A DNA stretch of 64,000 nucleotides from an uncultured Chloroflexia bacterium (GCA_963776545.1 CAVZND010000011.1:99487-163486), one strand, 5' to 3'; shown: positions 3,618-36,430, counted from the first letter of the stretch. A program made the numbers and translations. The notes: generated by a model not told the origin, from the sequence alone.

Positions 3618-4775
3618 ATGAGCGATCTTGCGCTTGACCGTGGCTCGCCCCCGGTCTACGACGCCCTCGACGCGGCGACCCGGGCCGTGGCCGGCGTGCT
3701 CTCGGTCGACGAGGTGCTCCAGGTCATCGTCGACCAGGTCCGCCCCCTGGTCGGGGCGCGCTACGCCGCCCTGGGGATCGTCGACGAGCACGGCATCGTC
3801 GAGCGATTCATCACGAGCGGCATCAGCGACGAGGTCCGCGCCAGCATCGGCCCGATCCCTCGCGGCCACGGCCTGGTCGGCCTGATCATCGAGGAGAACC
3901 GGGCGTTCCGGATCGACGACATCAACGTCGACCCGCGGCGCCATGGCTTCCCGCCGAACCACCCGCCGATGACGACGTTCCTCGGGGTGCCGATCACGGT
4001 GAAGGGGCGGTCGGTCGGCAATCTCTACCTGACCGACAAGGACGGCGGGAGCCCGTTCACCGAAGCGGACCAGGAGATCGTCGAGTTCTTCGCCCGACAC
4101 GCCGGGATCGCCATCGACAACGCCCGGCTGCACGAGTTGGTCATGAGCCTCGCGGTCATCGAGGAACGCGAGCGCATCAGCAAGGACCTGCACGACGGGA
4201 TCATCCAGAGCCTCTACGCGGTCGGCCTGTCGCTCGAGGACGTCCCCGACCTCATGGACGAGGACCCGGCCGAGGTGGTTCGCCGCGTCGAGCGGGCGAT
4301 CGACAACCTGCACATCGCGATCGGCGACATCCGGAACTTCATCTTCGGCCTGCGGCCGGATCTCCTCGGCGGCGTATCGCTCATCGTGGGTCTCGCGGCA
4401 CTGGTGGACGAGTTCCGGCACAACACGTTGATCGACATCGAGCTGGCGGGCGGTGGGCTCGAGCCCGAGCCGCCGGCCGAGGTGACGGCGCACCTGCTCG
4501 GGATCGTCAACGAGGCGCTGAGCAACGTGGCGCGCCATGCGGCGGCGTCGCGGGCCTGGGTCGATGCATCGAGCGGCCCCGACGGGAGCGTGGTGCTCCG
4601 AGTGCGCGACAATGGGCGCGGCTTCGATGCCTCGATCGGCGCGCCACTGGGTCACCAGGGACTCGCCAACATGCGATCTCGGGCCGCTGGGATCGATGCG
4701 ACCCTCGAGGTCGCGAGCGAACCCGGATCGGGAACGACCATCTCCATCACACTGCCCCGAACGAACCAGCCATGA
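3618..4775 (+). CDS. GAF domain-containing sensor histidine kinase (HisKA_3 / NarL-partner type, DevS/DosS-like)
   Basis: ATG at 3618 inside ORF 2802..4775; the upstream part of that ORF is antisense to the previous gene. GAF region present (RFITSGISD...GHGLVGLIIEE...FLGVPI), H-box ERERISKDLHDGIIQSLY, N-box NVARHA, G-boxes DNGRGF and GHQGLANMRSRA. Confidence 0.9.
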   Translation: MSDLALDRGSPPVYDALDAATRAVAGVLSVDEVLQVIVDQVRPLVGARYAALGIVDEHGIVERFITSGISDEVRASIGPIPRGHGLVGLIIEENRAFRIDDINVDPRRHGFPPNHPPMTTFLGVPITVKGRSVGNLYLTDKDGGSPFTEADQEIVEFFARHAGIAIDNARLHELVMSLAVIEERERISKDLHDGIIQSLYAVGLSLEDVPDLMDEDPAEVVRRVERAIDNLHIAIGDIRNFIFGLRPDLLGGVSLIVGLAALVDEFRHNTLIDIELAGGGLEPEPPAEVTAHLLGIVNEALSNVARHAAASRAWVDASSGPDGSVVLRVRDNGRGFDASIGAPLGHQGLANMRSRAAGIDATLEVASEPGSGTTISITLPRTNQP

Positions 4776-9408: not shown

Positions 9409-10680
9409 CTACCTGAGGTGCTCCGCGCGGGCTTCGGCGGCCAGCCGGTCGCGGAAGTCGGGGTGGGCGATCGCGATCATCGCGGCGGCGCGTTCCCGCA
9501 GGCTTCGCCCGAACAGTTCGGCGATCCCCCACTCGGTCACGACGGTCCGGACATGGGCTCGCGTGGTGACGACGCCGGCGCCCGGGTGCAGGATCGGCAC
9601 GATCCGTGACACCGTCCCGTTCGCCGCCGTCGACGGCATCGCGATGATCGAGCGGCCCTGCTCGGCAAGGGCCGCGCCACGGATGAAGTCCATCTGGCCG
9701 CCGACGCCCGAATACAGGCGTTGCCCGATCGAATCGGCCGCGACCTGGCCCGACAGGTCGACCTCGATCGCCGAGTTGATAGCCACCATCCGGTCGAACG
9801 TGCGGATGACCTGCGTGTCATTCGTGAAGTCGACAGAGCGCATCTCGACCATCGGGTTGTCATCGACGAAGTCGTACAGGCGCTTGGACCCCATCACGAA
9901 GGCAGTGACGAGCTTGCCCCGGTTGCGCTCCTTGCGGGTGCCGGTGACCACGCCCGCCTCGACGAGGTCCGCGACCGCGTCGGTGAACATCTCGGTGTGG
10001 ATGCCCAGCTCATGCTTGTCGCCGAGCGCCATCGCGGTGGCTGCCGGGATGGCCCCGATGCCAAGCTGCATCGTCGCTCCGTCGGGCACGAGCTCTGCGA
10101 CGAACTCGCCGATGCGCTGCTCGATGGCGCCGATCGGCCCGATCGAGTACTCGTAGGGCGGTTGGTCGACCTCGATCGCGAGGTCGATCGAATCGACGTG
10201 GATGAAGCTCTCGCCGAGCGTCCTCGGCATGGAGCGGTTGAACTGGACGACGACGACCTTGGCGGCGCGGATGGCGGCGTGCATCGCTTCGACGCTCGTG
10301 CCGAGCGAGCAGAACCCATGGCGGTCCGGCGGCGTGGCATTCACGAACACGACGTCGATCGGTAGCGCCCCGGAGTCGAACAGCCGCGGGACGTCTGACA
10401 GGAAGACCGGCACGTAGTCGGCCCGGCCCTCGTTGACCGCCGCCCGAGCGTTCGGTCCGATGAACAGCGCCCGGTGCCGGAAGTGGGTGGCCATCTCGGG
10501 TGCGAGGTGCGGCCCCGGCCCCTCGACGTGGAGGTGGACGATGCCGACGTCATGGAGTTCCGGCGCCCGCGCGACCAGGGCGTCGAGCAGGACCGATGGC
10601 ACCGCCGCCGCGCACTGCAGGTACACCTGCTCGCCCGAACGGACGCCGGATACGGCCTCGGCAGGCGTGACGATGCGCAT
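9409..10680 (-). CDS. acetyl-CoA hydrolase/transferase family protein (4-hydroxybutyrate CoA-transferase-like)
   Basis: Real start is ATG 10680 (MRIVTPAEAVSGVRSGEQV...) within the 1125-aa ORF. The rest of that ORF is antisense to the ATPase gene. Family-typical C-terminal blocks present (GGQMDFIRGA..., HPDFRD). Confidence 0.88.
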   Translation of the reverse strand: MRIVTPAEAVSGVRSGEQVYLQCAAAVPSVLLDALVARAPELHDVGIVHLHVEGPGPHLAPEMATHFRHRALFIGPNARAAVNEGRADYVPVFLSDVPRLFDSGALPIDVVFVNATPPDRHGFCSLGTSVEAMHAAIRAAKVVVVQFNRSMPRTLGESFIHVDSIDLAIEVDQPPYEYSIGPIGAIEQRIGEFVAELVPDGATMQLGIGAIPAATAMALGDKHELGIHTEMFTDAVADLVEAGVVTGTRKERNRGKLVTAFVMGSKRLYDFVDDNPMVEMRSVDFTNDTQVIRTFDRMVAINSAIEVDLSGQVAADSIGQRLYSGVGGQMDFIRGAALAEQGRSIIAMPSTAANGTVSRIVPILHPGAGVVTTRAHVRTVVTEWGIAELFGRSLRERAAAMIAIAHPDFRDRLAAEARAEHLR

Positions 10681-24070: not shown

Positions 24071-27000
24071 ATGGGCACGGCAGCCGCCCATCATCGCCGC
24101 GTGGCCAGGCGGGTGAGCAGCGACCGCTTCATCGGCCGAGCGAATGACCTCGGGCGACTGACGGCTGCGTACGCCGAGGCGACGGCCGGTCGGTCGCTGT
24201 TCGTCCTCGTCACCGGCGAGGCGGGTGTCGGGAAGTCCCGCCTCCTCAACGAAGCGCGCCGCGGCTTCGAGGCGGCCGGAGCCACGGTGCTCGTCGGGGG
24301 GTGCATCCAACTCGGGGACGAGCTTCCGTTCGGCCCCGTCGTCGAGGCGCTTCGACCCCTCGTCGCGACCCTGGGGCGGGATCGCGTCCTCGCGCTGGCC
24401 GGGCCGCATCGGCTGGCGCTCGAGCGGCTGATCCCCGAGCTCACCCCAACACCTGAGCGGGTCCCGGACGAGCACGCCAGTGGCGCCTGGCGCCTGTACG
24501 AGGCGGTCCGGACCCTCCTGACCAGGATGACTCGCGACGGCCCGGTCGTGCTGGCGATCGAGGACGTCCACTGGGCGGACGCGTCGACGAGAGCGCTGCT
24601 CCAATATCTCCTCGGGACGCTGGACCACAGTCCGATCCTCGTCGTGGCGACGTATCGAAGCGACGAGGTCTCCGCTCGCCACCCGCTGCTGCCGGTCCTC
24701 GCCGAACTCGGACGCTCAGGCGACATCGAGCGCCTCGACCTCGAGCCGTTCGGGCGAACCGACCTCGGCGACCTGGCGACGTCGATCCTCGGCCACCCGC
24801 TTGATGGCAGAGACCTCGACACACTCGTCGAGCGTTCCGATGGGAATCCGTTCCTGGCCGAAGAGCTCATGGCCGCGTCGGCCGCAGGGATGGGTCGACA
24901 GGAGATCCCGATCACGCTGGCCGACGTCCTCGCGGCCCGCCTCGCGGGCCTGTCCCCGGACGCGCGGCGCATCGTTCGCGCCGCGTCGGTGCTGGGTCGC
25001 CGCGTCGACCATCGGCTCCTCACGAGGATCCTTCCTGACCCTGAAGTTCAGGTGCTCGCGTGCCTTCGGGAGGCGGTCGATGAACGGATCCTGGTCCCAG
25101 CCGATGCGGGAGCCTCGGTCGCCTATGCCTTCCGTCACGCGCTGGTAGGCGAAGCGGCCTATGACGAGCTCCTGCCTGCGGAACGAGTCGCGCTGCATGG
25201 GGCCGTGGCACAGGCGCTCCAGGCGGAAACGGCGGATGACGAGCTCCCGGCCGAGGTCGCCGGGGAGATCGCCTATCACGCGTTCCGCGCACACGATCTT
25301 CCTCGAGCGCTCGTAACGGCGATCCGAGCCGCGGTGGCTGCCACCGCGATCTACGCGTACCCCGAAGCGCTCCGCCAGTACGAGCGGGCCATCGAGTGCT
25401 GGCCAGACGTCCCCGATGCCGGATCCCTGACGGGTCTGGAGCGCTGGGAGCTGCTGTTCCGGGCGGCGCGTTCGGCGGCGGCGGCGCACGACCCGGCGCG
25501 GGGTTGCCGGATCGCCGAGGCCGCACTCGAGACGCTCGGGCCGGGGCGCGAGCTGGAGGCGGGCGCGATCGTCGCGCAGTCGTTCTGGTTCGCCTGGGAG
25601 GCGGCCGACTACGAGACCCTGGAACGCTTTGGGTCGGCCGGCGTCAAGCTCGTGCCAGCCGGGACGCCAGGCGACCTCCGGGCGCAGGTCCTGGCCAACC
25701 TGGCGGCGCTCCGGCGCTACCACGGCCATCACGAGGAGGCGCTCGCGCTTGGCCGTGAAGCCGTCACCGCCGCTCGCCAGGCGAAGGCAAGGGGTGCCGA
25801 AGGTCGCGCCCTGGCGGTGGTCGCCGAGACGCTCAGCCACCTGGGTCGCCCCGATGCCGCCCTGGTGGCCTTCGGGGAAGCGGCCGAAGCAGCCGCCGAT
25901 GCCGGCGATCGGGAGGAACTCGTGCGCATCGCGCACGGCAGCACCTGGGCACATGAGATCGCGGGCCGGTTCGACCAGGGCCTCGAGATCGCGGAGCGGG
26001 CCCTCGAGGCGTCCGTCGCGGCTGGGTCCGAGAGTCGCCATGGGGACTTCCTGCGCGCGGTCATCATCGAATGCCTCGTCGAGCTCGGGCGATGGCAGGA
26101 GGTCGACGAGCTCATCCGCCGGGTGGACGAGCGATGGATCGCGAGCCCGGCGACCGCCTGGGCGGAAGTGATGGTGATGCGCATCCACATCAGCCGAGGC
26201 GAATTCACGGAGGCCGTCCGAATCCACGATCGGACCATCGACATCCCGGCGATCGCGTTCAACCTCGTGTGGGAAACGGAGGAGGGGTCCCACCTCGCCT
26301 ACGCCGAGGGGCGGGTGGCCGAGGCGCGGCGGATCGTCGACACGGCGATCGCCGCGTGCCCGACGCCGCATGACTCCGCGTTGTGGTGGATCCTCAGCAA
26401 GGCCGTTACCGGCGAGGCGGACGCCGCATCCGACGCGCGCGCGCGGCGACGCAAGCAGGAGGTCGATGCGGCCATAGGGTTCGGCACTCGATATGGCGAC
26501 TTGCTGCGACATTCGCTCGGTCTTGCCATCGCCACCGGCGAGGCCGGCCCGCTCGCGGAGGCATATCTCGTCTGGGAGACAGCGGAACGCAGTCGCCTCG
26601 TCGATCGGGCGGATCCGGCCGCCTGGGATCGCGCGGCGAGCACTCGGGAAGCGCTCCCGCAACCATACGAGGCCGCCTATGCGCGGTTCCGCCACGCCGA
26701 GGCGATCCTGGCCGCGGCTGGATCACGCGACGCCGCCGAGCGAGCGCTGCGGACCGCCCACGCGACGGCCACCGTCCTCGAGGCGAAGCCGCTCCTGCGG
26801 AGGATCGAGGAGCTCGCCAGGAGGGCTCGGCTCTCCGTCACCGCTCGACGCCCGGCCGGACGAGTCCGTGGTCGATCGACGGAGTTGACACCTCGGGAGC
26901 GCGAGGTCGTCGCGTATCTGGCCGAGGGACGGACGAACCGCGAGATCGCCGAGGCACTCTTCATGAGCGAGCGGACCGCCTCGGTCCATGTCTCGAATCT

Positions 27001-27106
27001 CATGGGCAAGCTCGACGCAAGGAGTCGATTCGAAGCCGCGGCCATCGCGACCCGGCGCGGACTCCTCGCCGGACCCTCGGACGAGCCCGGTGCGCCGGTC
27101 CCATAG
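24071..27106 (+). CDS. large ATP-binding LuxR-family (LAL) transcriptional regulator
   Basis: Walker A (VTGEAGVGKSRL), a long TPR-like helical middle, and a C-terminal LuxR HTH (LTPREREVVAYLAEGRTNREIAEALFMSERTASVHVSNLMGKL). Confidence 0.9.
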   Translation: MGTAAAHHRRVARRVSSDRFIGRANDLGRLTAAYAEATAGRSLFVLVTGEAGVGKSRLLNEARRGFEAAGATVLVGGCIQLGDELPFGPVVEALRPLVATLGRDRVLALAGPHRLALERLIPELTPTPERVPDEHASGAWRLYEAVRTLLTRMTRDGPVVLAIEDVHWADASTRALLQYLLGTLDHSPILVVATYRSDEVSARHPLLPVLAELGRSGDIERLDLEPFGRTDLGDLATSILGHPLDGRDLDTLVERSDGNPFLAEELMAASAAGMGRQEIPITLADVLAARLAGLSPDARRIVRAASVLGRRVDHRLLTRILPDPEVQVLACLREAVDERILVPADAGASVAYAFRHALVGEAAYDELLPAERVALHGAVAQALQAETADDELPAEVAGEIAYHAFRAHDLPRALVTAIRAAVAATAIYAYPEALRQYERAIECWPDVPDAGSLTGLERWELLFRAARSAAAAHDPARGCRIAEAALETLGPGRELEAGAIVAQSFWFAWEAADYETLERFGSAGVKLVPAGTPGDLRAQVLANLAALRRYHGHHEEALALGREAVTAARQAKARGAEGRALAVVAETLSHLGRPDAALVAFGEAAEAAADAGDREELVRIAHGSTWAHEIAGRFDQGLEIAERALEASVAAGSESRHGDFLRAVIIECLVELGRWQEVDELIRRVDERWIASPATAWAEVMVMRIHISRGEFTEAVRIHDRTIDIPAIAFNLVWETEEGSHLAYAEGRVAEARRIVDTAIAACPTPHDSALWWILSKAVTGEADAASDARARRRKQEVDAAIGFGTRYGDLLRHSLGLAIATGEAGPLAEAYLVWETAERSRLVDRADPAAWDRAASTREALPQPYEAAYARFRHAEAILAAAGSRDAAERALRTAHATATVLEAKPLLRRIEELARRARLSVTARRPAGRVRGRSTELTPREREVVAYLAEGRTNREIAEALFMSERTASVHVSNLMGKLDARSRFEAAAIATRRGLLAGPSDEPGAPVP

Positions 27107-27252
27107 AGCCGGCCGCCACGGGCGAGCGAGTTTACGTAGCCACACGGGCCTCAACTAAGTGTTTGCACGATGTTCGCGTGCATCGCGGTGCCTACCGTCC
27201 CGGGTGTCAAGGCGGCGACCAGCTGACCTGACCGATGGGAAGGAGAGGTGCG

Positions 27253-27603
27253 ATGAGCGCCGACATCAAGGCCGCGGTACGTCCGCCGAGTGGCATGCGA
27301 TGGGACCCGATGCGGTTCGCGATCGGGACGGCCCTCGCGATCAGTCTGACCGCAGGCGGCTTCGCCATCGGTCGGGCGAGTTTCGACCAGCCGGACACGG
27401 TCGTCTCCGGAGGACCGGTCGCCGCGGGAGCGGACCATCCCGAAGCCGGCGCCATCGCGGCTCCGCGGATCTCGCCGACGCAGCCGTCAGACGCGGCGAT
27501 CCGCGATCAGCAGCGCCACCACGGGTCGAGGCATCGGGCGAGCCCGGCCGAGCCCGAGCAGGCGATCAAGGACTGCGCGATCCATCGTAGCCAAGGCTGC
27601 TGA
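27253..27603 (+). CDS. hypothetical single-pass membrane protein
   Basis: ATG 27253 preceded by AGGAGAGG. One TM helix (FAIGTALAISLTAGGFAIG) and good GC3. Confidence 0.55.
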   Translation: MSADIKAAVRPPSGMRWDPMRFAIGTALAISLTAGGFAIGRASFDQPDTVVSGGPVAAGADHPEAGAIAAPRISPTQPSDAAIRDQQRHHGSRHRASPAEPEQAIKDCAIHRSQGC

Positions 27604-27633: not shown

Positions 27634-28068
27634 TCATGGCCGGCGCGCCGGCGTCATCGCGTCGTGCCCGGGGAGTCCGCATTCGGACAGGGCGGCGGCG
27701 AACCCGTCGAGGTCGTCGACCGTCAGGTAGAGCGCCGGGACGCGCAGCCCCATCCGGGGGACCGGCTCACGGAAGTCGATGCGGACGCCGCCACGGTTGG
27801 TGCCACCAAATGTCAGGTCCCGATGGCGGACGCTGTAGCGGACGCCGATCGCGGTGATCCAGCGCCACGGACCCTCGATCCGCCACGAGGCGAGGTTGCT
27901 CGTCGGTGTCCGGAATCGGAAGAAGCCGAAGTGCGCATCGAGCTCGTCGTCGCCGAGATCGACGTAGGCGTTGGACGCCCGGACCCCGAACAACAGAAGG
28001 ACGAACCTCGACCGCCTGCCGAGTCGAAGCGGGAACCGATGGGTGCTCGCCGCGGCAGGCAGCGTCAC
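27634..28068 (-). CDS. hypothetical protein (144 aa), last gene of the CFA-synthase operon
   Basis: GTG 28068 overlaps the cfa stop (GTGA at 28065-28068). Good GC3. No motif recognised. Confidence 0.7.
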   Translation of the reverse strand: MTLPAAASTHRFPLRLGRRSRFVLLLFGVRASNAYVDLGDDELDAHFGFFRFRTPTSNLASWRIEGPWRWITAIGVRYSVRHRDLTFGGTNRGGVRIDFREPVPRMGLRVPALYLTVDDLDGFAAALSECGLPGHDAMTPARRP

Positions 28069-29306
28069 CCGATCCCGCGCCGCTTCTCGAACACGACCTG
28101 CAGATCCTGGCTGATCCCGGTCGCGAAGCCTGCCTCGCTCAGTGCGAGGTAGTACTCCCACATCCGGATGAACCGGTCGTCGAACCCCATCCGCCGGACG
28201 GACTCGAGCTGGGCCATGAACCGCGTCCGCCAGGCCCGCAGCGTCAGCACGTAGCTGGGGCCGATGTCTGTCACGCCGCGGACCAACAGCCGGGTGTCGC
28301 GGGTCGCGCGTTCGATGACCGAGAGCGATGGGCAGAGACCGCCCGGGAAGATGTACGTCTGGATCCAGTTGGCCCCCCGGCGCTGCGTCTCGTAGGCGGC
28401 GTCCGGGAACGTGATCGACTGGAGGCTCATCCGCCCGCCTGGGACCAGCGCCGCGTCGCAGGTCCGGAAGAATGTCTCGAAGTACTCGGCGCCGACCGCC
28501 TCGAGCATCTCGATCGAGACGATCGCATCGTACGTGCCGCTGATCTCGCGGTAGTCGCGCAGCTGGACATCGATGAGGCCGTCGAGACCCGCGTCGCGGA
28601 CGCGCTCGCGGGCGAGCTCGAACTGCTCACGCGAGATCGTGATCGAGGTGACACGGCAGCCGATCTCGCCGGCGGCATACAGGGCGAACCCGCCCCATCC
28701 GGTGCCGATCTCCAGGACGTGGTCGCCTCGGGTCAGGCCCGCCCCCTCGGCCACGAGCCGGTACTTGTTGCGCTGAGCGTCGGCGAGGGACTGGTCGGGC
28801 GATGCGAAGACCGCGCTCGAGTAGGTCATGGTCTCGTCCAGGAACAGCCGGTAGAAGTCGTTGCCGAGATCGTAGTGGGCGGCGATGTTGCGCTGGCTCT
28901 GCCGGCGGGTGTTGCGCCGCAATCGATGGGCAAGCGTCCGTCGGAGCTGGGCGGGCACGCGCCACCAGCCACTCGACAACGCCAGCGCCTCTCGATTCAA
29001 GGCGGCAACGCGCAGGAGAACTGCCAGGTCCGGGCTCGACCAGAGACCGTCCATGTACGCTTCGCCGCCGCCGGTCTCGCCGCCGACGAGCATCCGGACG
29101 AGCGCCTTGCGGTCATGGATGCGGATCTCGCCCCGTTCCGGCGCCGTCGGGTCGCCGAAGACCTGGCTCGATCCGTCGGGGAGCACGACGGTCAGGGCGC
29201 CGACGCGGATGCGGGCCAAACCGGCCAGCCCGATGCGCCAGGCGATGCGTGCAAGGAATGAGTCGTCGGTCGCGGGAGCGCCTCCCGCAGTGATTCGCGT
29301 GTTCAT
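28065..29306 (-). CDS. cfa: cyclopropane-fatty-acyl-phospholipid synthase family SAM-dependent methyltransferase
   Basis: SAM motif VLEIGTGWGGFALYAA and the CFA-synthase family layout (NIAAHYDLGNDFY...). ATG 29306 overlaps the DUF1365 stop (ATGA). Confidence 0.9.
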   Translation of the reverse strand: MNTRITAGGAPATDDSFLARIAWRIGLAGLARIRVGALTVVLPDGSSQVFGDPTAPERGEIRIHDRKALVRMLVGGETGGGEAYMDGLWSSPDLAVLLRVAALNREALALSSGWWRVPAQLRRTLAHRLRRNTRRQSQRNIAAHYDLGNDFYRLFLDETMTYSSAVFASPDQSLADAQRNKYRLVAEGAGLTRGDHVLEIGTGWGGFALYAAGEIGCRVTSITISREQFELARERVRDAGLDGLIDVQLRDYREISGTYDAIVSIEMLEAVGAEYFETFFRTCDAALVPGGRMSLQSITFPDAAYETQRRGANWIQTYIFPGGLCPSLSVIERATRDTRLLVRGVTDIGPSYVLTLRAWRTRFMAQLESVRRMGFDDRFIRMWEYYLALSEAGFATGISQDLQVVFEKRRGIG

Positions 29307-30043
29307 CGCGTGGCAGCTCCATGTCGATGGAAGGCGGCCCCGCGCCGCCACAGCCGCAGGGCATGCCAGTGGATGAGCCCGATCGTCTTCTGGGTGACGA
29401 AGGGGTGACGGACGAGCATCCGCGCGACGGCCCGATCCGTGAGCGGCCGGCGGGTGAGGTCGAGGCTTGTGTGCAGGAGCAGTTCGCTAGCCTGGTCCTC
29501 GTTGATCGAGATCCGTAGTCGCCCCGGCTCGTCGCGGACTCGGACCGTGTAGCGCCCGACCATCTCGATGAAGGGCGAAACGTAGAAGTCCTTGTCCATC
29601 GAGGCCGCGAAGTCAAGCTCGTTCGTCGGGCGGCGGAGGGTGTACAGGTGCCGTTCGCGATAGGTGTTGTGGACCTCGACGATGACGACCTGCAGCTCGC
29701 CGGCAGCATCCCGGCATAGATAGAAGCTCGCCGGGTTGAAGACATAGCCGAAGACCCGCAGGTTGGCGATGAGGGTGATCCGCCATCCGTCCGGATCGAT
29801 CCCCTCCGTTCGAAGGAGCGCGCGGGCCGCCTCGGACAGATCCACCGCCGGCGGGGCCAAGTGGTCCCCGTCCCGGAACGAGAGGAGATTGGGCCGGTTG
29901 CGGCTGACGAGCCGGACCTTGCGGGGCACCACATCGAGCTCATCGAGATCAAGCGCGACGTAGTAGACGTCGTGCTCGAGCGCGTACACGAACGGACGGG
30001 CGCGGCGGTGGCGCACCTTGCCCTCGAGCAAATGCGACCTCAC
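29303..30043 (-). CDS. DUF1365 domain-containing protein
   Basis: [32 protein letters not shown]... is the typical DUF1365 N-terminus. GTG 30043 overlaps the upstream stop (GTGA). Confidence 0.88.
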
Positions 30044-31311
30044 GCCGCACGCTCCTGGACGGCCGGTAACAGCAGCTCGGCTACCTCGAATCCGGATCGA
30101 CAACCGTCCTCGTGGAACCCGTAGCCAAGGTGGGCCCCGGCGTAGAAGGTGCGCCGTCGGCCCTGGAGTTCCCGTACGGCCCCCTGGGCATCCAGCGTGC
30201 GGAACGTGTAGAGCGGGTGACTGAAGCTCCGTTCCACGAGGACGCGCTCCCGATCCACCCGGTCGCCCGAATTCACTGATGTGAAGTACTGGACCGGCCC
30301 TGGCAGCGACTGCAACCGGTTCATGTGGTACGTCATAGCGAGCCCTTCGCCCGGTCGCCGGCAGTCCGCCTGGTCGACGTTCCAGGAAGCCCAGGCACGA
30401 CGTCGCCGGGGCATGAGCCGGGCGTCCGTGTGGAGCGTGACCTGGTTCCTGTTGTACTCGAATGCCCCGAGGACGGCTCGCTCGTGCGGATCGGCATCGC
30501 GCAGGACCGCCAGCGCGTCATCCGCATGCGTCGCGATGACGACCGCGTCGAACCGTTCGGTTGCGCCGGCGGCTGTCATGACGGTGACCCCCAGGTCGTC
30601 GCGAACCACGCCGACGACCGCATCCCCGGACCGCACCGACCCCGCCGGGAGCGCGGCGACGATGCGCCGGACGTACGCCATCGAACCACCGCTGATCGTC
30701 CGCCACTGGAAGGATCGGCCGACCCCGATCAGGCCGTGGTTGTCGAGGAACCGCAGGAGATAGTCGATCGGGAAGTCGAGGATCCGCTCCGGCGCCGTCG
30801 ACCACACCGCCGAGGTGATCGGGATGATGAAGTGGTTGCGGAAGCCCGACCCGTAGCCACCGTCGTCGAGGAAGTCGCCCAGCGTGGCGCGCGACAGCGT
30901 GTTCGCGTCGAGAAGCCGCCGAGCCTCGCCGTAGAACCGCAGGACATCCGTGATCATCCGCCAATGGGAGGGACGGACGACCGAATCGGTTCGCGCGAAA
31001 TAGCCGCGCGCACCGCGCGAGCTGAAGGCCACGCGACAGGCATGGCAAGCGGAGCCCAGGGACATGTCGCTCGGCTGCGTCTCCACGCCGAGTTCGGCCA
31101 GGAGTCCGGTGAAGCGCGGGTACGTGCGTTCGTTGTAGACGATGAATCCGGTGTCGACGGGAATGGCCCCACCATCGGCTTCCACGGGTACGGTCTTGAC
31201 ATGCCCGCCGACCGCCGGTTCCGATTCGAACAGCCGGACCTCGTGGTCCGTCCGCAGAGCGTATGCGGCGGTCAGCCCGCTCACGCCGCCCCCCACGACG
31301 GCGATCCTCAT
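30040..31311 (-). CDS. NAD/FAD-binding amine-oxidase-like oxidoreductase (partner of DUF1365/CFA synthase)
   Basis: ATG 31311 ([19 protein letters not shown]...[10 protein letters not shown] dinucleotide fold). The N-terminal 380 aa of listed ORF 30040..32460 is antisense to the SDR gene. Confidence 0.9.
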
Positions 31312-31781
31312 GACGGGTCCGCCTGGAACTGGCCACCCGCGGTATCGGCCCGAGCGTCGAGGGCGCGCTGCATCCCGGCGAGCGCATCGCGGCCAAGCTT
31401 CGCGAACGCCCGACCGAGGAACGGCTGGACGAGCCGCAGGACGCCGCCCAACCGGATGTCGGCCGAGTAGTCGATCCGGGTGCCGCTCCCGGATGGTTCG
31501 AAGCGGATCTCGTCGACCGCCGAGACCCCCGAACCCTGCCCCACGAGGACGACCCGGTGGGGCGGCTGGAAGGTGGAGATCCGGTACTCCATCGGGGCGA
31601 CCCGGCCCCCAAGTCGGACATCCAGTCGATAGCGGGCGCCGAGCCCGACAGGGCCGTCGTCGATCCGTTCGGAGGTGACGGTGCCGGGGTCCCAATGCAT
31701 CGCGTTCGCGAAGTCCGCGATGAAGGCGAACGCCGCCTCCGGTTCCAGCGGCGTTTCGATGTGCTCGGTGATCCTGGTCAC
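31308..31781 (-). CDS. SRPBCC family (polyketide cyclase/dehydrase-like) protein
   Basis: [30 protein letters not shown]... SRPBCC pattern. GTG 31781. Its stop overlaps the next ATG (ATGA at 31308-31311). Confidence 0.8.
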
Positions 31782-31867
31782 GGTCGACTCCGATCCGGGT
31801 GATACTCGGGCGCACGGGGGACCCATCCGGACCAAGCGATGGCCGGTCCGCCGGTGCGATCCGAGAG

Positions 31868-32866
31868 GTGTTGGTGGACGTCAGGACGCTCATCGACGGC
31901 GGCCTCGAGATGTCGGTCGTGGCGAGCTTCAGTCGGGTAGGCATCGCCGTTCGCCGACGGCTGTTCCGCTGGACTGCGCCACCGGCCGATGCGCTCGCGG
32001 GCCGGACGGTCCTGATCACGGGCCCGACGTCCGGCCTGGGCCGTGCGGCGACGGAAGCTTTCGCCGGACTCGGGGCGCGCGTGATCCTCGTCGGCCGCAG
32101 CCGGGAACGGCTCACAGCGGTTCGGGATGCCCTCGTGGCCGTCCACGGCGAGGACCGCTTCCCGATCGTCGTGGCCGACATGGGCTCGCTCGACTCGGTC
32201 CGCGCGGCCGTCGAGCGCGTGCTGGCCACCGAGTCGCGGCTCGACGTCCTCGTCGACAACGCGGGCGCGATCTTCCCCGAACGGACCGACGGGCCGGACG
32301 GGATCGAGGCCACCCTGGCGACCCTGGTCGTGGGGCCCTTCACCCTCGTGTCGGGCCTCCTGCCGCTGCTCCGGCAGACCGAGGGATCGCGGGTCATCGC
32401 CGTGACCTCGGGTGGCATGTACACGCAGGGCGTCCGCTTTGACGACCTGCAGTGGGTCACCGAGCCGTTCTCGGGCCCGCGGGCCTATGCCGGCGCCAAG
32501 CGGATCCAGGTCGCGCTCATGCGGGAGTGGGCGCGTCGGCTTACGCCGTCCAACGGCTCGTCCGGCATCACCGTCAACGCGATGCATCCCGGTTGGGCCG
32601 ACACGCCGGGACTCGCCGAGGCCCTGCCGGGCTTCTATCGCTTGATGGGTCCGGTCCTCCGAACCCCGGCCGAAGGGGTGGACACGCTCGTGTGGCTGGC
32701 TGCGTCGCCCGAAGCCGGAGTGCGGAGCGGCGAACTCTTCCTGGACCGCCGCCCGAGGCCCTTCGACCGCTTCCCGGGGACGCGTCTCTCGCCCGTCGAT
32801 CGCCGACGTCTTTGGCGAATGGTCGTGGAGTTGTCCGGTGTGCCCGACCCCCTTCCCGAAGGCTGA
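31868..32866 (+). CDS. SDR family oxidoreductase (DHRS12-like)
   Basis: [10 protein letters not shown] cofactor motif, NAG, and catalytic YAGAKR. Divergent from the SRPBCC operon. GTG 31868 chosen; ATG 31910 is an alternative. Confidence 0.88.
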
Positions 32867-33040
32867 GGCGGCGAACCTCGACGAAACCGCGCTGGGGGCA
32901 TGGTTTGCGGACACGGCGATAGGCGTGGTCTTCGGCTCGGATCGGCGATCCACTGACGGGGACTCCTGGTCGTGAACGAGGTGGCTCCGGGCCCCCTCGA
33001 GTCGAGGTTGGTGTTCACCCTTTGTTTAAGGTATGCCGAA

Positions 33041-33090
33041 CTGTAGCGGCAGTGTCCAGGGATTGTCAAGCTATTCTGGGTGCGTATACT
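33041..33090 (+). promoter_or_regulatory. promoter of the CarH/LitR gene with 11-bp-phased TGT repeats (candidate CarH operator); near-leaderless
   Basis: -35 TTGTCA (33063-33068), 16-nt spacer, -10 TATACT (33085-33090), ATG at 33100. TGT recurs at 33042, 33053 and 33064. tTGTcaAgcTa matches the reverse complement of the CarH direct-repeat pattern nAnnTnnACAn as I recall it. Confidence 0.45.
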
Positions 33091-33099
33091 CAACAAAGC

Positions 33100-34053
33100 A
33101 TGTACACAATCAAACAGGCCGCGGCCCGCACCGGCCTCAGCGTCCCGGTCATCCGGGTCTGGGAGCGCCGGTATGGCGTCGTGCAGCCGAGCCGTACTCC
33201 GGCCGGCTACCGGCTCTACGACGAGGAGTCGATCGCCCGCCTGGCCGCGATGCGCCGATTGGTCGCCGAGGAGGGCTGGCAGCCAAGGCAAGCGGCGCAA
33301 CGGGTGCTCGAGCCTGGGTTCGATCCGCTGGAGGCAGTCGGCGAAAGCGCGGGCCGGGCCGATCGGGCCGGATCGTCGATCGGCTTGGTCACCGGCGTCG
33401 GGCAGCGAGATCAAGAGGTGTCGCTAGTGCGCGCGTTCGTCGCCGCGGCCCACGACCTGGACGTTCCGGCCATGGAGCGGATCCTTGACGAGGGATTCGC
33501 GTCCCATCGCTTTGAGCTGGCGATCGAGGCTCTTGTCTCTCCGGCAATGCGAGCTATCGGCATCGCCTGGGCCCAGGACGAGATCGACGTCGGCGCTGAA
33601 CATGCGGCGAGCGAAACGGTCCGACGACGGCTGGCGCGCTTCTACGATGCGGCCGGGCTCGGTGACCGGGTACCACGTGTGGTCGTCGGCCTGCCCCCGG
33701 ATGGGCAGCACGAGATCGGGGCATTCGCCTTCGCCGTGGCCACCCGGCGGGCCGGGCTCGAAGTGCTCTATCTCGGTGCGAACGTGCCGCTGGAGAGCTG
33801 GCTCCGGACCGTCGATGAGACCATGGCGCCGGTCGTCGTCATGGGGGTGGTGACGCCGTCCGATGTCGTAGCGGCGGGCGTCGTGATCGACGCGCTCGGC
33901 CAGTCAGCCAGATCGCCGATCTGCCTCGTCGGCGGCCCGCTGTCCGCCGATTCGCTCGGCGGACTCGAGACCATCCGCCTTCCGACGCCACTCGACGACG
34001 CGGTGGCGGCGGTGGCCAGGCTCCTCGGCTCCGACGAACGGGCCCCCCGCTGA
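33100..34053 (+). CDS. MerR family, cobalamin-binding light-responsive transcriptional regulator (CarH/LitR type)
   Basis: MerR HTH (MYTIKQAAARTGLSVPVIRVWERRYGVVQPSRTPAGYRLY). B12-binding_2 helix bundle with W-x9-EH (AWAQDEIDVGAEH). B12-binding Rossmann domain with the His loop (PPDGQHEIG). Confidence 0.9.
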   Translation: MYTIKQAAARTGLSVPVIRVWERRYGVVQPSRTPAGYRLYDEESIARLAAMRRLVAEEGWQPRQAAQRVLEPGFDPLEAVGESAGRADRAGSSIGLVTGVGQRDQEVSLVRAFVAAAHDLDVPAMERILDEGFASHRFELAIEALVSPAMRAIGIAWAQDEIDVGAEHAASETVRRRLARFYDAAGLGDRVPRVVVGLPPDGQHEIGAFAFAVATRRAGLEVLYLGANVPLESWLRTVDETMAPVVVMGVVTPSDVVAAGVVIDALGQSARSPICLVGGPLSADSLGGLETIRLPTPLDDAVAAVARLLGSDERAPR

Positions 34054-34093: not shown

Positions 34094-34960
34094 TCACGGG
34101 ACCGGTCGAGCGCCGCGTCCCCTCAGCGCTTGGATCAAGTCGCCAAGCATTCGCGGGTCCGGGACCCATCCGTCCGCGCCGAGATCTAGCGCCGCCCGCT
34201 CGTCGGGGATCGCGTGTCCGCCGACCAACCGTGGAACCGACGGCCGTTCCCGACGGGCGGCGGCCAAGAGGCGCCCGGCTGCCGGTCGACGCTCGCTGTC
34301 GACGACACTCACGATGACCGCGGCCAACGATCCTGCATCGTGCATCGCAGCGGCAAACGACGCCGTCGGAGTGTCGGGGCCCAGGTTGAGGACGCCATAT
34401 CCGGCGTGGGCGAGGATGTCGGCGAGCATCGCGACCCCGAGTCCGTGACGTTCGCCGGGCGGCATCGCCACGATGACGACGCCCTTCTTGCGGCCTGGGC
34501 GCGCGAAGCGCGGGCCCAGGCGTCCGATCAGCGTCGCAGCCACACTGCTCGCGAGATGCTCCTGGTCGATGGAGATGTCGCCCGATCGCCACGACGCCCC
34601 GATGTCGCGGAGCGTCGGCGTGAGGATGCTCACGTAGATCTCGCCTGGCTCGAGTCCCGAGGCCATGGCCGCTTCGACGACTTGCCAGCTGCCCGCCGCG
34701 TCGCCGCTGAGCATTCGCGCCTGGAGACGCTCCTGCCAGGTCGATACCCGCGGATGACCAGTCCCGCGGCGGCGACGACCACGGTCGGGCGTTGTGGTCG
34801 TCCGCTCGAGATCGGCGGGATCGACCATCCACGTTCCGCCGACCTTCCGTGCCGGCAGGATCCCCAGCCGAACGCGCCGGTAGATCGTCATGTAGTGGAC
34901 GCCGACGCGTTCGGCCGCCTCGTGCAGGCTGAGATGACCGGACGCGTCGGATGGGGTCAA
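34094..34960 (-). CDS. excisionase-type HTH + cobalamin-binding domain protein (second CarH-type photoreceptor candidate)
   Basis: HTH (LSLHEAAERVGVHYMTIYRRVRLGILPARKVGGTWMV), W-x9-EH (SWRSGDISIDQEH), His loop (PPGERHGLG). TTG 34960 overlaps the heliorhodopsin stop (TTGA at 34957-34960). Confidence 0.85.
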   Translation of the reverse strand: MTPSDASGHLSLHEAAERVGVHYMTIYRRVRLGILPARKVGGTWMVDPADLERTTTTPDRGRRRRGTGHPRVSTWQERLQARMLSGDAAGSWQVVEAAMASGLEPGEIYVSILTPTLRDIGASWRSGDISIDQEHLASSVAATLIGRLGPRFARPGRKKGVVIVAMPPGERHGLGVAMLADILAHAGYGVLNLGPDTPTASFAAAMHDAGSLAAVIVSVVDSERRPAAGRLLAAARRERPSVPRLVGGHAIPDERAALDLGADGWVPDPRMLGDLIQALRGRGARPVP

Positions 34961-35727
34961 CCCGCCAGCGTCCCCGCGAACACCTGCCAGGCGAGCGCCG
35001 ACTTCGCGACCAGGCTGAGCATGAAATAGGCCCTCTCGCCGAAGACGTACGACTGCCAGCGACCGACCCGCCGGTACTGGAGCCACATGTTAAGCGCGAA
35101 TATGTTGAAGAAGACGAAGAGCGAAAGGAAGATCGCGTAGACGAAGGCGGGCGGCTCGGCCGCACTTCCTGGTGACCAAAGGTAGACACCAACGGCCAAC
35201 CACGGCGCGATCCCCACGACGCACCCAAGCCAGAACGGCCACAGCGAGCCGCCCGGCCGCTCGTATCGCTCCTGGACCGCACCGAAGAAGATCATCGCTG
35301 CGTTGGCGGCGAAGATGCCGATGAGTGCCGCGACATCGCTGATCCCGGTGAGCATCGCGATGAGCACGATCATCACCGACGATGAGAGCGAGTACTCGGC
35401 CCAGCGAAAGTAGTTGTGCTCCGCCCCCAGTCCGGCGATGTAGCGCCCGAACACGCCGGGCAGCGCCACGAGCCAGTGGAACACGGCCGACAGCAGGAGG
35501 AAGAGGGCGACGCCCCAAGCCACGGAGACTTCGAACAGCGGGATCGGCGCGCTGGCCGGGGTGCCCGGCGGCCCCTCCATGAACGTCGCCGTTACCGGCA
35601 GCGCGAAGGCGGTCGCGAGGGCGAGGACGGCGACGGCCTGGATGGCATGGACGAAGCCCAGCCCGATGTTCCAGCGCCGCAGGGAGGCGGCCCGGGTGAC
35701 AGGGAGGTCCAAGGTTGGCGAGATCAT
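34957..35727 (-). CDS. heliorhodopsin
   Basis: Blocks EGPPGT, SAVFHWLV, FRWAEYSLSSSVMIVLIA, PFWLGCVVGIAPW, FVFFNIFALNMWLQYR and GERAYFMLSLVAKSALAWQVFAGTL (TM7 Lys) match heliorhodopsin 48C12 almost residue for residue as I recall it. ATG 35727 chosen; GTG 35748 (after AAAGGAA) is an alternative. Confidence 0.92.
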   Translation of the reverse strand: MISPTLDLPVTRAASLRRWNIGLGFVHAIQAVAVLALATAFALPVTATFMEGPPGTPASAPIPLFEVSVAWGVALFLLLSAVFHWLVALPGVFGRYIAGLGAEHNYFRWAEYSLSSSVMIVLIAMLTGISDVAALIGIFAANAAMIFFGAVQERYERPGGSLWPFWLGCVVGIAPWLAVGVYLWSPGSAAEPPAFVYAIFLSLFVFFNIFALNMWLQYRRVGRWQSYVFGERAYFMLSLVAKSALAWQVFAGTLAG

Positions 35728-35775
35728 GCGTTGGTCGGTGGCGATCACAGACTGAGTTCCTTTGCATGGGGATGC

Positions 35776-35807
35776 GGGTGGAGCCCGGAGGAGAACGGGC
35801 CCCACCC
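35776..35807 (-). terminator. 12-bp stem hairpin between the fasciclin gene and heliorhodopsin
   Basis: Minus-strand RNA GGGUGGGGCCCG-uucuccuc-CGGGCUCCACCC (one G-U pair). No U-tract. It sits 28 nt after the fasciclin stop and 28-48 nt before the heliorhodopsin start. Confidence 0.45.
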
Positions 35808-35834
35808 TGGGACTGGGCTGGGTGGTTCGCTGGG

Positions 35835-36430
35835 TCAGTCGGCCGGCGGCAGGATGACAGCGTCGATGACGTGGATGACGCCATTGGACGCCAACACGTC
35901 GGCGGTGACGACCTTGGCGCTACCGTTCAGGAAGACGGTTCCGTCCTTGACGGACGACAGCTGATGGGCGATCCCTCGACCGAGTCGGCAGAGGTGAGTC
36001 CGACGACCTTGTCGGCCGTCACGGCCGCGGGGACGACGTGATACAGCAGGACCTTCTTGAGGGCTTCCTTGTCGGCGAGCAACCCCTCGAGCGTGCCGGC
36101 AGGCAGCGCGGCGAACGCCTCGTCGGTCGGGGCGAAGACGGTGAACGGACCGTCGCCCTGGAGCGTCTCCACGAGACCGGCGGCCTTGGCCGCGGTCAGC
36201 AGGGTGGTGAACGAGCCCGCTTCGGTGGCGGTCTCGACGATGTCCTTTGCCATGGCGTCAGCCGACGGCGAAGGCGCCATGCTCGGGGATGCGGCGTTGG
36301 TCGATGCCGGGCTCGGAGTGGACACGACGGTTGGCGCTGCGCTCGGCGACGCGGCGGACGAGCAGGCCGCGATCGCGATCGCGAGCGCTGGCACGAGGAG
36401 GACGATGGATCGCTTCATGGTCGATGACAT
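35835..36430 (-). pseudogene. fasciclin (FAS1) domain lipoprotein, reading frame broken by an apparent 1-nt deletion near 35958-35965
   Basis: Lipobox AIAACSS and FAS1 blocks [13 protein letters not shown] and LLYHVV. ORF 35927..36430 ends in ...[17 protein letters not shown]. The conserved FAS1 C-terminus ([41 protein letters not shown], stop at 35835-35837) continues in another frame. Confidence 0.8.

Follow-up and report, generated by a model that had tools for sequence, protein, structure and literature searches.

A conserved, overlap-coupled gene block, probably for lipid modification, beside a CarH gene in a soil Limnocylindria genome

Our analysis concerns a window of 64,000 nucleotides from an uncultured Chloroflexia bacterium (GCA_963776545.1, CAVZND010000011.1:99487-163486), a soil Limnocylindria metagenome-assembled genome (MAG) that is 85.6% complete; the G+C content of the window is approximately 70%. 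Between positions 27634 and 32866, next to a carH gene and a heliorhodopsin operon, lies a chain of five minus-strand genes with a divergent partner gene. By analogy with a proven pathway, and with rather more confidence than doubt, we read this block as a translationally coupled, light-linked operon for lipid modification, in which three enzymes resembling UfaD, UfaO and UfaM are joined by an SRPBCC protein and an SDR oxidoreductase. Its product would be a methylated or furan fatty acid, and its last gene, here called orf144, would be an optional accessory. The sequence shows the gene identities, the conserved overlaps and gene order, an operator-like site, an inversion, and the conservation and predicted fold of orf144; the product, the control by light and the role of orf144 we infer.

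In the direction of transcription the chain encodes an SRPBCC (START-like) protein of 157 residues (31308..31781; Polyketide_cyc2, PF10604, E 6e-20), a flavin adenine dinucleotide (FAD)-dependent oxidoreductase of the amine-oxidase/phytoene-desaturase kind (30040..31311), a DUF1365 protein (29303..30043), an S-adenosylmethionine (SAM)-dependent methyltransferase of the CMAS/cyclopropane-fatty-acid (CFA) synthase family (28065..29306) and, as last cistron, the 144-residue orf144 (27634..28068). The SDR gene (31874..32866, 330 residues; adh_short, PF00106, E 5e-26) lies on the plus strand. Pfam searches agreed with the identities that a preliminary description of this DNA had proposed for the SRPBCC, FAD oxidoreductase, DUF1365, CMAS and SDR proteins and for CarH and heliorhodopsin. 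All four junctions in the chain are 4-nt start/stop overlaps on the minus strand, just as that description had stated (ATGA at 31308-31311, GTGA at 30040-30043, ATGA at 29303-29306 and GTGA at 28065-28068). They are not due to chance, since the same overlaps recur in related loci: at 22 of 22 FAD oxidoreductase/DUF1365 junctions, 21 of 22 DUF1365/CFA junctions and 15 of 22 SRPBCC/FAD oxidoreductase junctions. The CFA/orf144 overlap, from which translational coupling had been proposed, is likewise real; 10 loci have orf144 next to CFA and on the same strand, and 7 of these share the overlap. Comparison with relatives places the SRPBCC start at GTG 31781, after a GGAG Shine-Dalgarno sequence, rather than at TTG 31835, and the SDR start at GTG 31874, after GAGAGG, rather than at 31799; with both starts corrected, the two genes do not overlap and stand apart by a GC-rich spacer of 92 bp (31782..31873). 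The SDR gene and the SRPBCC-FAD oxidoreductase-DUF1365-CFA series were present in every related cluster examined, and SDR diverges from SRPBCC in 16 of 20 loci.

The three central enzymes belong to the same families, in the same contiguous ufaD-ufaO-ufaM order, as RPA2571-2569 of Rhodopseudomonas palustris. The FAD oxidoreductase matches Amino_oxidase and NAD_binding_8 (PF01593 and PF13450; E 8e-21), and its likeness to UfaD is at the level of domains. The DUF1365 protein, our candidate UfaO for an O2-dependent step forming the furan ring, covers 232 of the 235 profile positions of PF07103 (E 1.4e-74), is encoded by a single-copy gene and is 38 to 41% identical to proteobacterial DUF1365 proteins; a search for a relative of solved structure returned none. 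The methyltransferase matches PF02353 (E 1.1e-81) and aligns over its full length with the CFA synthases 7QOS, 5Z9O and 6BQC, with the two-domain architecture of enzymes that act on phospholipids. Because the genome has a single clear CMAS gene, this in-cluster methylase is the only candidate for UfaM.

Furan fatty acids (FuFA) are membrane-bound scavengers of singlet oxygen. To our knowledge, the genes for their synthesis have been defined only in Proteobacteria. In Rhodobacter sphaeroides the SAM-dependent methylase UfaM converts a phospholipid-bound cis-vaccenate chain to 11-methyl-12-trans-18:1 (11Me-12t-18:1), from which UfaD (RSP1091, an FAD-dependent relative of the phytoene desaturases) and UfaO (RSP1090, a DUF1365 protein) produce 9M5-FuFA (PMC7380195). 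FuFA levels in this organism are highest in cells without the anti-sigma factor ChrR (PMC7380195). Three neighbouring genes of R. palustris, RPA2571 (ufaD), RPA2570 (ufaO) and RPA2569 (ufaM), are all required and together suffice (PMC7380195). The window block resembles these systems (RPA2569-2571 in R. palustris; RSP2144 and the RSP1091-1087 operon in R. sphaeroides) in its FAD enzyme, DUF1365 protein and CMAS methylase, in their order, and in having extra small genes after the methylase. It differs in its phylum, Chloroflexota, in its SRPBCC first cistron and fixed SDR partner, in adjoining carH instead of sigmaE/ChrR, and in a terminal gene that belongs to another, unannotated family.

A second parallel comes from Mycobacterium tuberculosis, whose sigK locus we take to encode an FAD amine oxidase (Rv0449c), a DUF1365 protein (Rv0448c) and UfaA1 (Rv0447c), and whose sigK regulon proteins MPT70 and MPT83 are presumably fasciclin-domain proteins. 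The same enzyme triad would then occur in a monoderm and be co-regulated with fasciclin-domain proteins, and the heliorhodopsin operon of the window is headed by a fasciclin gene; the control of the mycobacterial locus differs in being an extracytoplasmic function (ECF) sigma/anti-sigma pair. In that species sigK is autoregulated through the Rv0449c promoter, with mpt70/83 in the regulon (PMC7509140).

If the window enzymes work as their proteobacterial counterparts do, the UfaM-like methyltransferase would methylate a monounsaturated acyl chain of a phospholipid, a second double bond, conjugated with the first, would come from the FAD enzyme, and the DUF1365 protein would close the furan ring using O2. 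The methylated or furan fatty acids so formed would quench singlet oxygen in the membrane.

A light-dependent repressor for such an operon may be encoded next to it. CarH and the class I LitR proteins are adenosylcobalamin (AdoCbl) photoreceptor-repressors of Thermus, Myxococcus, Bacillus and Streptomyces. The carH gene of the window lies beyond SDR on the plus strand (promoter and gene 33063..34053; ATG 33100), and Pfam assigns its product a MerR helix-turn-helix, a B12-binding_2 and a B12-binding domain; against the NCBIfam CarH model it scores 152.6 bits, below the cut-off of 400. The rule derived from Thermus CarH ties cobalamin use to the motifs Wx9EH and His-x-x-Gly. The translation keeps both, as WAQDEIDVGAEH and QHEIG, and so fits the cobalamin-using class. 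In CarH operators an 11-bp unit that includes ACA is repeated in tandem. The window has three ACA triplets in 11-bp phase (3x ACA-N8) at 33042-33066, the sole such site in the 64 kb, where 0.07 would be expected. The repeats overlap two back-to-back promoter-like sites, one facing the operon (TTGACA-18-TACAGT, 33069-33040, minus strand; scan score 10/12) and one facing carH (TTGTCA-16-TATACT, 33063-33090, plus strand). With a further element, ACAAAGGGTGAACA, at 33012-33025, the operon-facing promoter and the repeats make up a candidate CarH operator (33012..33069, minus strand).

The three closest relatives (L036, L033 and L041) all retain the promoter/ACA module in full. There the Shine-Dalgarno sequence and start of SDR come directly after it, and SDR, SRPBCC and the rest of the chain through orf144 follow. 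In these three loci the operator-bearing promoter would drive the series from SDR and SRPBCC to orf144 directly. In two further loci, L042 and L122, a ACAAAGGGT..ACA element overlaps a TTGACA promoter ahead of SRPBCC. On our model, an AdoCbl-type CarH would bind the phased ACA repeats over the back-to-back promoter in the dark and release them in the light. Domain order, cobalamin motifs, 11-bp-phased ACA repeats over a promoter and a geometry suited to self-regulation are shared with the known CarH/class I LitR systems. The usual targets of those systems are carotenoid genes, whereas the candidate target here is a probable lipid-modification operon.

In the window itself the SDR gene body is inverted. 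Positions 31878-32850 align in reverse to L036, L033 and L041, with both flanks collinear; the breakpoints fall at approximately 31798-31878 and 32850-32937, and about 80 bp at each junction align to nothing in those three loci. The former SDR leader and 5' end, a GTG and eight codons with GGAG just upstream, persist on the minus strand (32925..32953, with the GTG at 32953), where they align with the region of the SDR start in L036, L033 and L041. As a result of the inversion, 1.1 kb with SDR in antisense now separates the operator-bearing promoter from SRPBCC. A terminator-like hairpin follows SDR on the plus strand (32995-33007), and its minus-strand version lacks a T-tract. No convincing inverted repeats were found to flank the inversion, so an invertible switch was rejected, and the inverted segment and its flanks have diverged to a similar extent (78% versus 78 to 82%); both results point to an evolutionary rearrangement. 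An open reading frame (ORF) of 391 codons runs antisense through SDR (31778-32953, minus strand), starting at the relic GTG 32953 and ending in a TGA that overlaps the SRPBCC GTG. It was rejected as a gene, being a shadow frame of non-coding composition (GC1 of 0.84 above GC3 of 0.73); its in-frame junctions may be fortuitous or may retain ribosomes on a read-through transcript. The SDR/SRPBCC spacer of L042 and L122 contains the promoter/operator module together with a relic of a carH start (ATGTACAC), so that lineage has undergone a different inversion comprising the module and SDR. The surroundings of SDR are thus a rearrangement hotspot.

The last gene of the chain, orf144, is a real gene. 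Its GC content by codon position is 0.68/0.55/0.86, and its homologues comprise 1681 close ones at 90% clustering (568 clusters at 50% identity) and 2657 more distant ones in Micromonospora, Nonomuraea and metagenomes. Conservation and coding signal had been named beforehand as the test for this ORF, and both were found, with a GC3 of 0.86 and thousands of homologues in Chloroflexota and Actinomycetota. The names attached to homologues in public records are Candidatus Limnocylindrales or Chloroflexota; all the proteins are called hypothetical and none carries a Pfam domain. The close homologues share 28 invariant columns, including SW..GPW.W.T.IG.R. The preliminary description had recognized no motif in the 144 residues, and a Pfam scan agrees: the window protein has no match at E <=0.01 to any family, the bPH profiles included.

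The AlphaFold2 model of orf144 (pLDDT 85, pTM 0.80) is an all-beta sandwich of nine strands followed by a C-terminal helix (residues 120-129). Foldseek's best PDB matches are PH domains without exception (hSac2, Spt16 and dynamin), and 7 of 40 family members have sub-threshold matches to bacterial PH profiles, four to bPH_4 (best E 6.3e-4), two to bPH_5 and one to bPH_2. A profile of the family searched against PDB sequences gave noise only. The protein is like the bacterial PH domains (bPH_1 to bPH_6) in size, in standing alone as a domain and in its predicted beta-sandwich closed off by a C-terminal helix, and differs in that no bPH model reaches threshold on it. The scores speak against a firm assignment: the Foldseek matches are weak (E >=8e-3, TM 0.35-0.46), and the Pfam E-values are no better than 6e-4. 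We therefore regard orf144 as probably a divergent, stand-alone bacterial PH-like domain and not as a demonstrated member of that group. Fusions among the distant homologues join the domain to DUF1990 (three cases), a DCC1-like domain, DUF2795, an ATP10-like region and a domain with a GNSLGS serine motif, which we read as hydrolase-like. These partners gave no lead in the window genome: a search for DUF1990 found nothing, and the DCC1-like gene belongs to a different contig.

Linkage of orf144 to the lipid genes was assessed in 80 named loci, a sample biased towards Limnocylindria. The gene follows CFA co-directionally in ten, converges with CFA in two, follows a heliorhodopsin/B12-regulator operon in six or seven, and has unrelated neighbours in approximately 60. 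In the orf144 tree the clade of the window has 15 rows (support 100/98), six linked to the lipid cassette, six to the heliorhodopsin/B12-regulator genes and three to neither, and two further clades contain cassette-linked rows. The GTGA/ATGA overlap of CFA and orf144 is conserved in two separate clades, at 62 to 83% protein identity. In sister genomes (L034, L039 and the P0028 contigs) orf144 directly follows the heliorhodopsin/B12-regulator operon, and in the P0028 lineage a fasciclin gene comes first, then the genes for heliorhodopsin and the B12 regulator and then orf144, which overlaps the regulator gene by 4 nt. At L040, where the cassette is otherwise gone, a 37-residue relic of the CFA N-terminal region (GGGEAYMDGLWSSPDLA...; 9907-10017) remains directly upstream of orf144, a sign of cassette decay. 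The tree clades, the retained overlap, the P0028 order and this relic argue that the association of orf144 with the cassette is not random. On the simplest reading, an ancestral island with the heliorhodopsin and B12-regulator genes on one side and carH-SDR-SRPBCC-ufaD-ufaO-ufaM-orf144 on the other would have repeatedly lost or moved its cassette, leaving orf144 coupled to whichever gene preceded it. As a separate observation, a GMC-family oxidoreductase gene lies 3' of orf144 on the same strand in 11 of the 80 loci (L074, L090 and nine more), at a median gap of 81 nt; this is the gene found most often immediately downstream, with or without an upstream lipid cassette.

Several results weigh against the reading that we favour, and each is taken here with the alternative that it helps. 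The alternative that survives best, to which we give a chance somewhat below even, is that orf144 has no functional relation to the lipid operon and has simply been compacted onto the end of an upstream operon, the cassette having been repeatedly inserted, lost or moved beside it. Among the roughly 60 loci with other contexts the neighbours include the GMC oxidoreductase, a rhodanese and a thiamine diphosphate (ThDP) enzyme, and the neighbours of the actinobacterial homologues are diverse. The presence of orf144 and DUF1365 shows no association across the genus: both occur in seven genomes (unlinked in six), orf144 only in four, DUF1365 only in five and neither in eight, in MAGs that are incomplete. 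Where orf144 is unlinked, CFA is followed in the cluster by no gene or by other small genes, and the decay of the cassette at L040 fits this alternative as well. RSP1089-1087, the downstream accessory genes of the R. sphaeroides operon, are dispensable for FuFA synthesis (PMC7380195), which also counts against the reading that we favour. The claim that the 144-residue ORF is an integral gene of the cluster did not hold: it is linked in only 12 of 80 related loci and, among the 13 genomes of the genus that carry DUF1365, in only 2, counting that of the window. Against a complete lack of relation, the cassette is linked in three separate clades, the 4-nt CFA overlap has been retained through considerable protein divergence, the alternative partners in the window clade, heliorhodopsin and a B12 regulator, are also light-related, and distant homologues stand after a RudS-type gene by carotenoid genes and before a fatty-acid desaturase gene. 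We accordingly retain orf144 as an optional last cistron that would be co-translated with the preceding gene, CFA in the window and the B12 regulator in sister genomes; most likely it would serve the response to light or oxidative stress as an accessory without enzymatic activity, associated with membrane or lipid.

A second alternative accepts that the operon modifies acyl chains and differs on the product, which might be a cyclopropane, a mid-chain methyl or methylene group (as in tuberculostearate) or another oxidized lipid, the FAD enzyme and DUF1365 protein running different chemistry in this monoderm phylum. The CMAS protein is best matched by cyclopropane synthase models and, as noted, aligns in full with solved CFA synthases; it nevertheless falls below both NCBIfam Cfa equivalog cut-offs (NF053839, 309.7 versus 600 bits; NF008686, 263.4 versus 400), and its sequence is not one from which a methyl-alkene can be told from a cyclopropane product. 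Among solved structures the FAD enzyme is closest to LkcE (E 4e-39), an amine oxidase/cyclase of polyketide biosynthesis, and the SRPBCC first cistron and SDR stand outside the defined FuFA pathway. On the other side, FuFA synthesis is the sole experimentally defined role for a DUF1365 protein beside such an FAD enzyme and a CMAS methylase (PMC7380195), and the coupling of the three genes by overlaps in 21 to 22 of 22 loci fits a single pathway. A non-furan product seems to us unlikely, with perhaps one chance in a few, and a methylated or furan product remains the one that we propose.

Improbable, and slightly more so, is that the island is not controlled by light, CarH and heliorhodopsin being mere neighbours of an operon that answers another signal (oxidative or envelope stress, or growth phase) or is constitutive. 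Some support comes from the window itself, where no promoter or operator could be recognized in the 92-bp SRPBCC/SDR spacer; the spacer palindrome GGACC...GGTCC is not enriched (5 found versus 2.3 expected), and the RNA fold of the spacer is no better than that of shuffled sequences (z 0.38). Control by CarH would consequently need read-through over the antisense SDR gene or a promoter not apparent to us. For several related clusters the DNA examined contains no CarH, and the type B and C spacers of relatives have no ACA motif. However, 14 of 23 Limnocylindria loci have CarH next to the block, and in L036, L033, L041, L042 and L122 the operon comes immediately after the operator-bearing promoter. 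The sequence of the heliorhodopsin/B12-regulator operon adjoins the block in five loci (the window, L036, L124, L042 and L121, the last with a heliorhodopsin fragment). The preliminary picture of one light island beside CarH and heliorhodopsin therefore stands in part: the CarH association, the presence of the heliorhodopsin/B12 genes in some loci and the conserved operator promoter support it, whereas in the window the inverted SDR gene separates that promoter from the operon. In this genome, control of the operon by CarH is something that we infer.

Orthologous gene sets in Proteobacteria are induced by light or singlet oxygen (PMC9758184, PMC7380195). In the LitR cluster of Pseudomonas putida/mendocina, phrB, SDR, FAD oxidoreductase, ufaM and hypothetical genes lie together (PMC9758184), and a link to this system, proposed earlier for the window, is sound in that a class II LitR controls the light-induced phrB, ufaM and neighbouring genes (PMC9758184). 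The same enzyme set thus adjoins a MerR/LitR-family regulator in both cases, with light induction shown for Pseudomonas; the class II LitR, however, makes no use of B12 and acts through a short LOV protein (PMC9758184), whereas the window CarH keeps its cobalamin motifs, and the window block has no photolyase. The other proposed link, to sigmaE/ChrR, is supported by annotated Shinella and Azospirillum replicons, in which the genes adjoin a sigma factor and a ChrR anti-sigma-E factor. Neither an ECF sigma factor nor ChrR was found among the ten ORFs scanned in the window (27.2-35.8 kb); the rest of the genome was not searched for ChrR.

Distant homologues of orf144 have neighbours of their own. 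In Nonomuraea (L127:5037-6429) one follows a RudS-type gene (2-thiour_desulf and DUF1722) beside carotenoid synthesis genes, at L129 (5717-7432) another lies between an acetyltransferase gene and a fatty-acid desaturase gene with gaps of 2 and 26 nt, and a third follows a TetR gene. These neighbours suggest a faint light and lipid theme, which is not proof. In Micromonospora (L126) a regulator with AAA_16 and GerE (LuxR-type helix-turn-helix) domains is encoded two genes upstream of the orf144 homologue. That orf144 founds an unannotated family of stand-alone PH-like light-response effectors, for example as a membrane-binding partner linking the module of B12 photoregulator and heliorhodopsin to lipid remodelling, would explain its coupling to the HTH_17/B12 regulator or to CFA within one clade and the RudS neighbour of a distant homologue, and we consider it a long shot.

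The remaining features flank the block. Beyond carH, the fasciclin, heliorhodopsin and HTH_17/B12-regulator operon occupies 34094..36430 on the minus strand; the heliorhodopsin has a Pfam match at E 7e-96, the HTH_17/B12 regulator is the second B12-type regulator beside the block, and the fasciclin gene was recognized by homology to Pfam-annotated genes. We know of no established function for heliorhodopsin. On the other side, an ORF for a membrane-anchored protein of 122 residues (27235-27603, plus strand) converges on orf144. Because in L033 this ORF (3719-4129) is found at the carH side of the block, the segment from carH to orf144 is the opposite way round relative to that flank. Two genes beyond orf144 lies an ORF of 1011 residues (24071-27106, plus strand); any parallel between it and the regulator gene near the Micromonospora homologue (L126) is probably coincidental. 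In L036 (G020:C3) the B12 regulator, CarH, SDR, FAD oxidoreductase and CFA each align as two or three frame-shifted pieces, owing either to long-read assembly error or to decay of the island.

The ufaD-ufaO-ufaM type of cluster is already known. What appears to be new in the window is its phylum, the SRPBCC and SDR partners, a cobalamin-type CarH with a conserved operator module, and the union with a heliorhodopsin operon. Around SDR, rearrangements have repeatedly reshuffled one promoter/operator module. The orf144 family is widespread, with thousands of members in Chloroflexota and Actinomycetota, and is annotated by no database. A conserved, coupled version of the pathway in soil Limnocylindria would extend FuFA synthesis to a monoderm phylum, and a lipid operon wired to a cobalamin photoreceptor and a heliorhodopsin operon would be a concrete candidate for the output of a light-sensing island.

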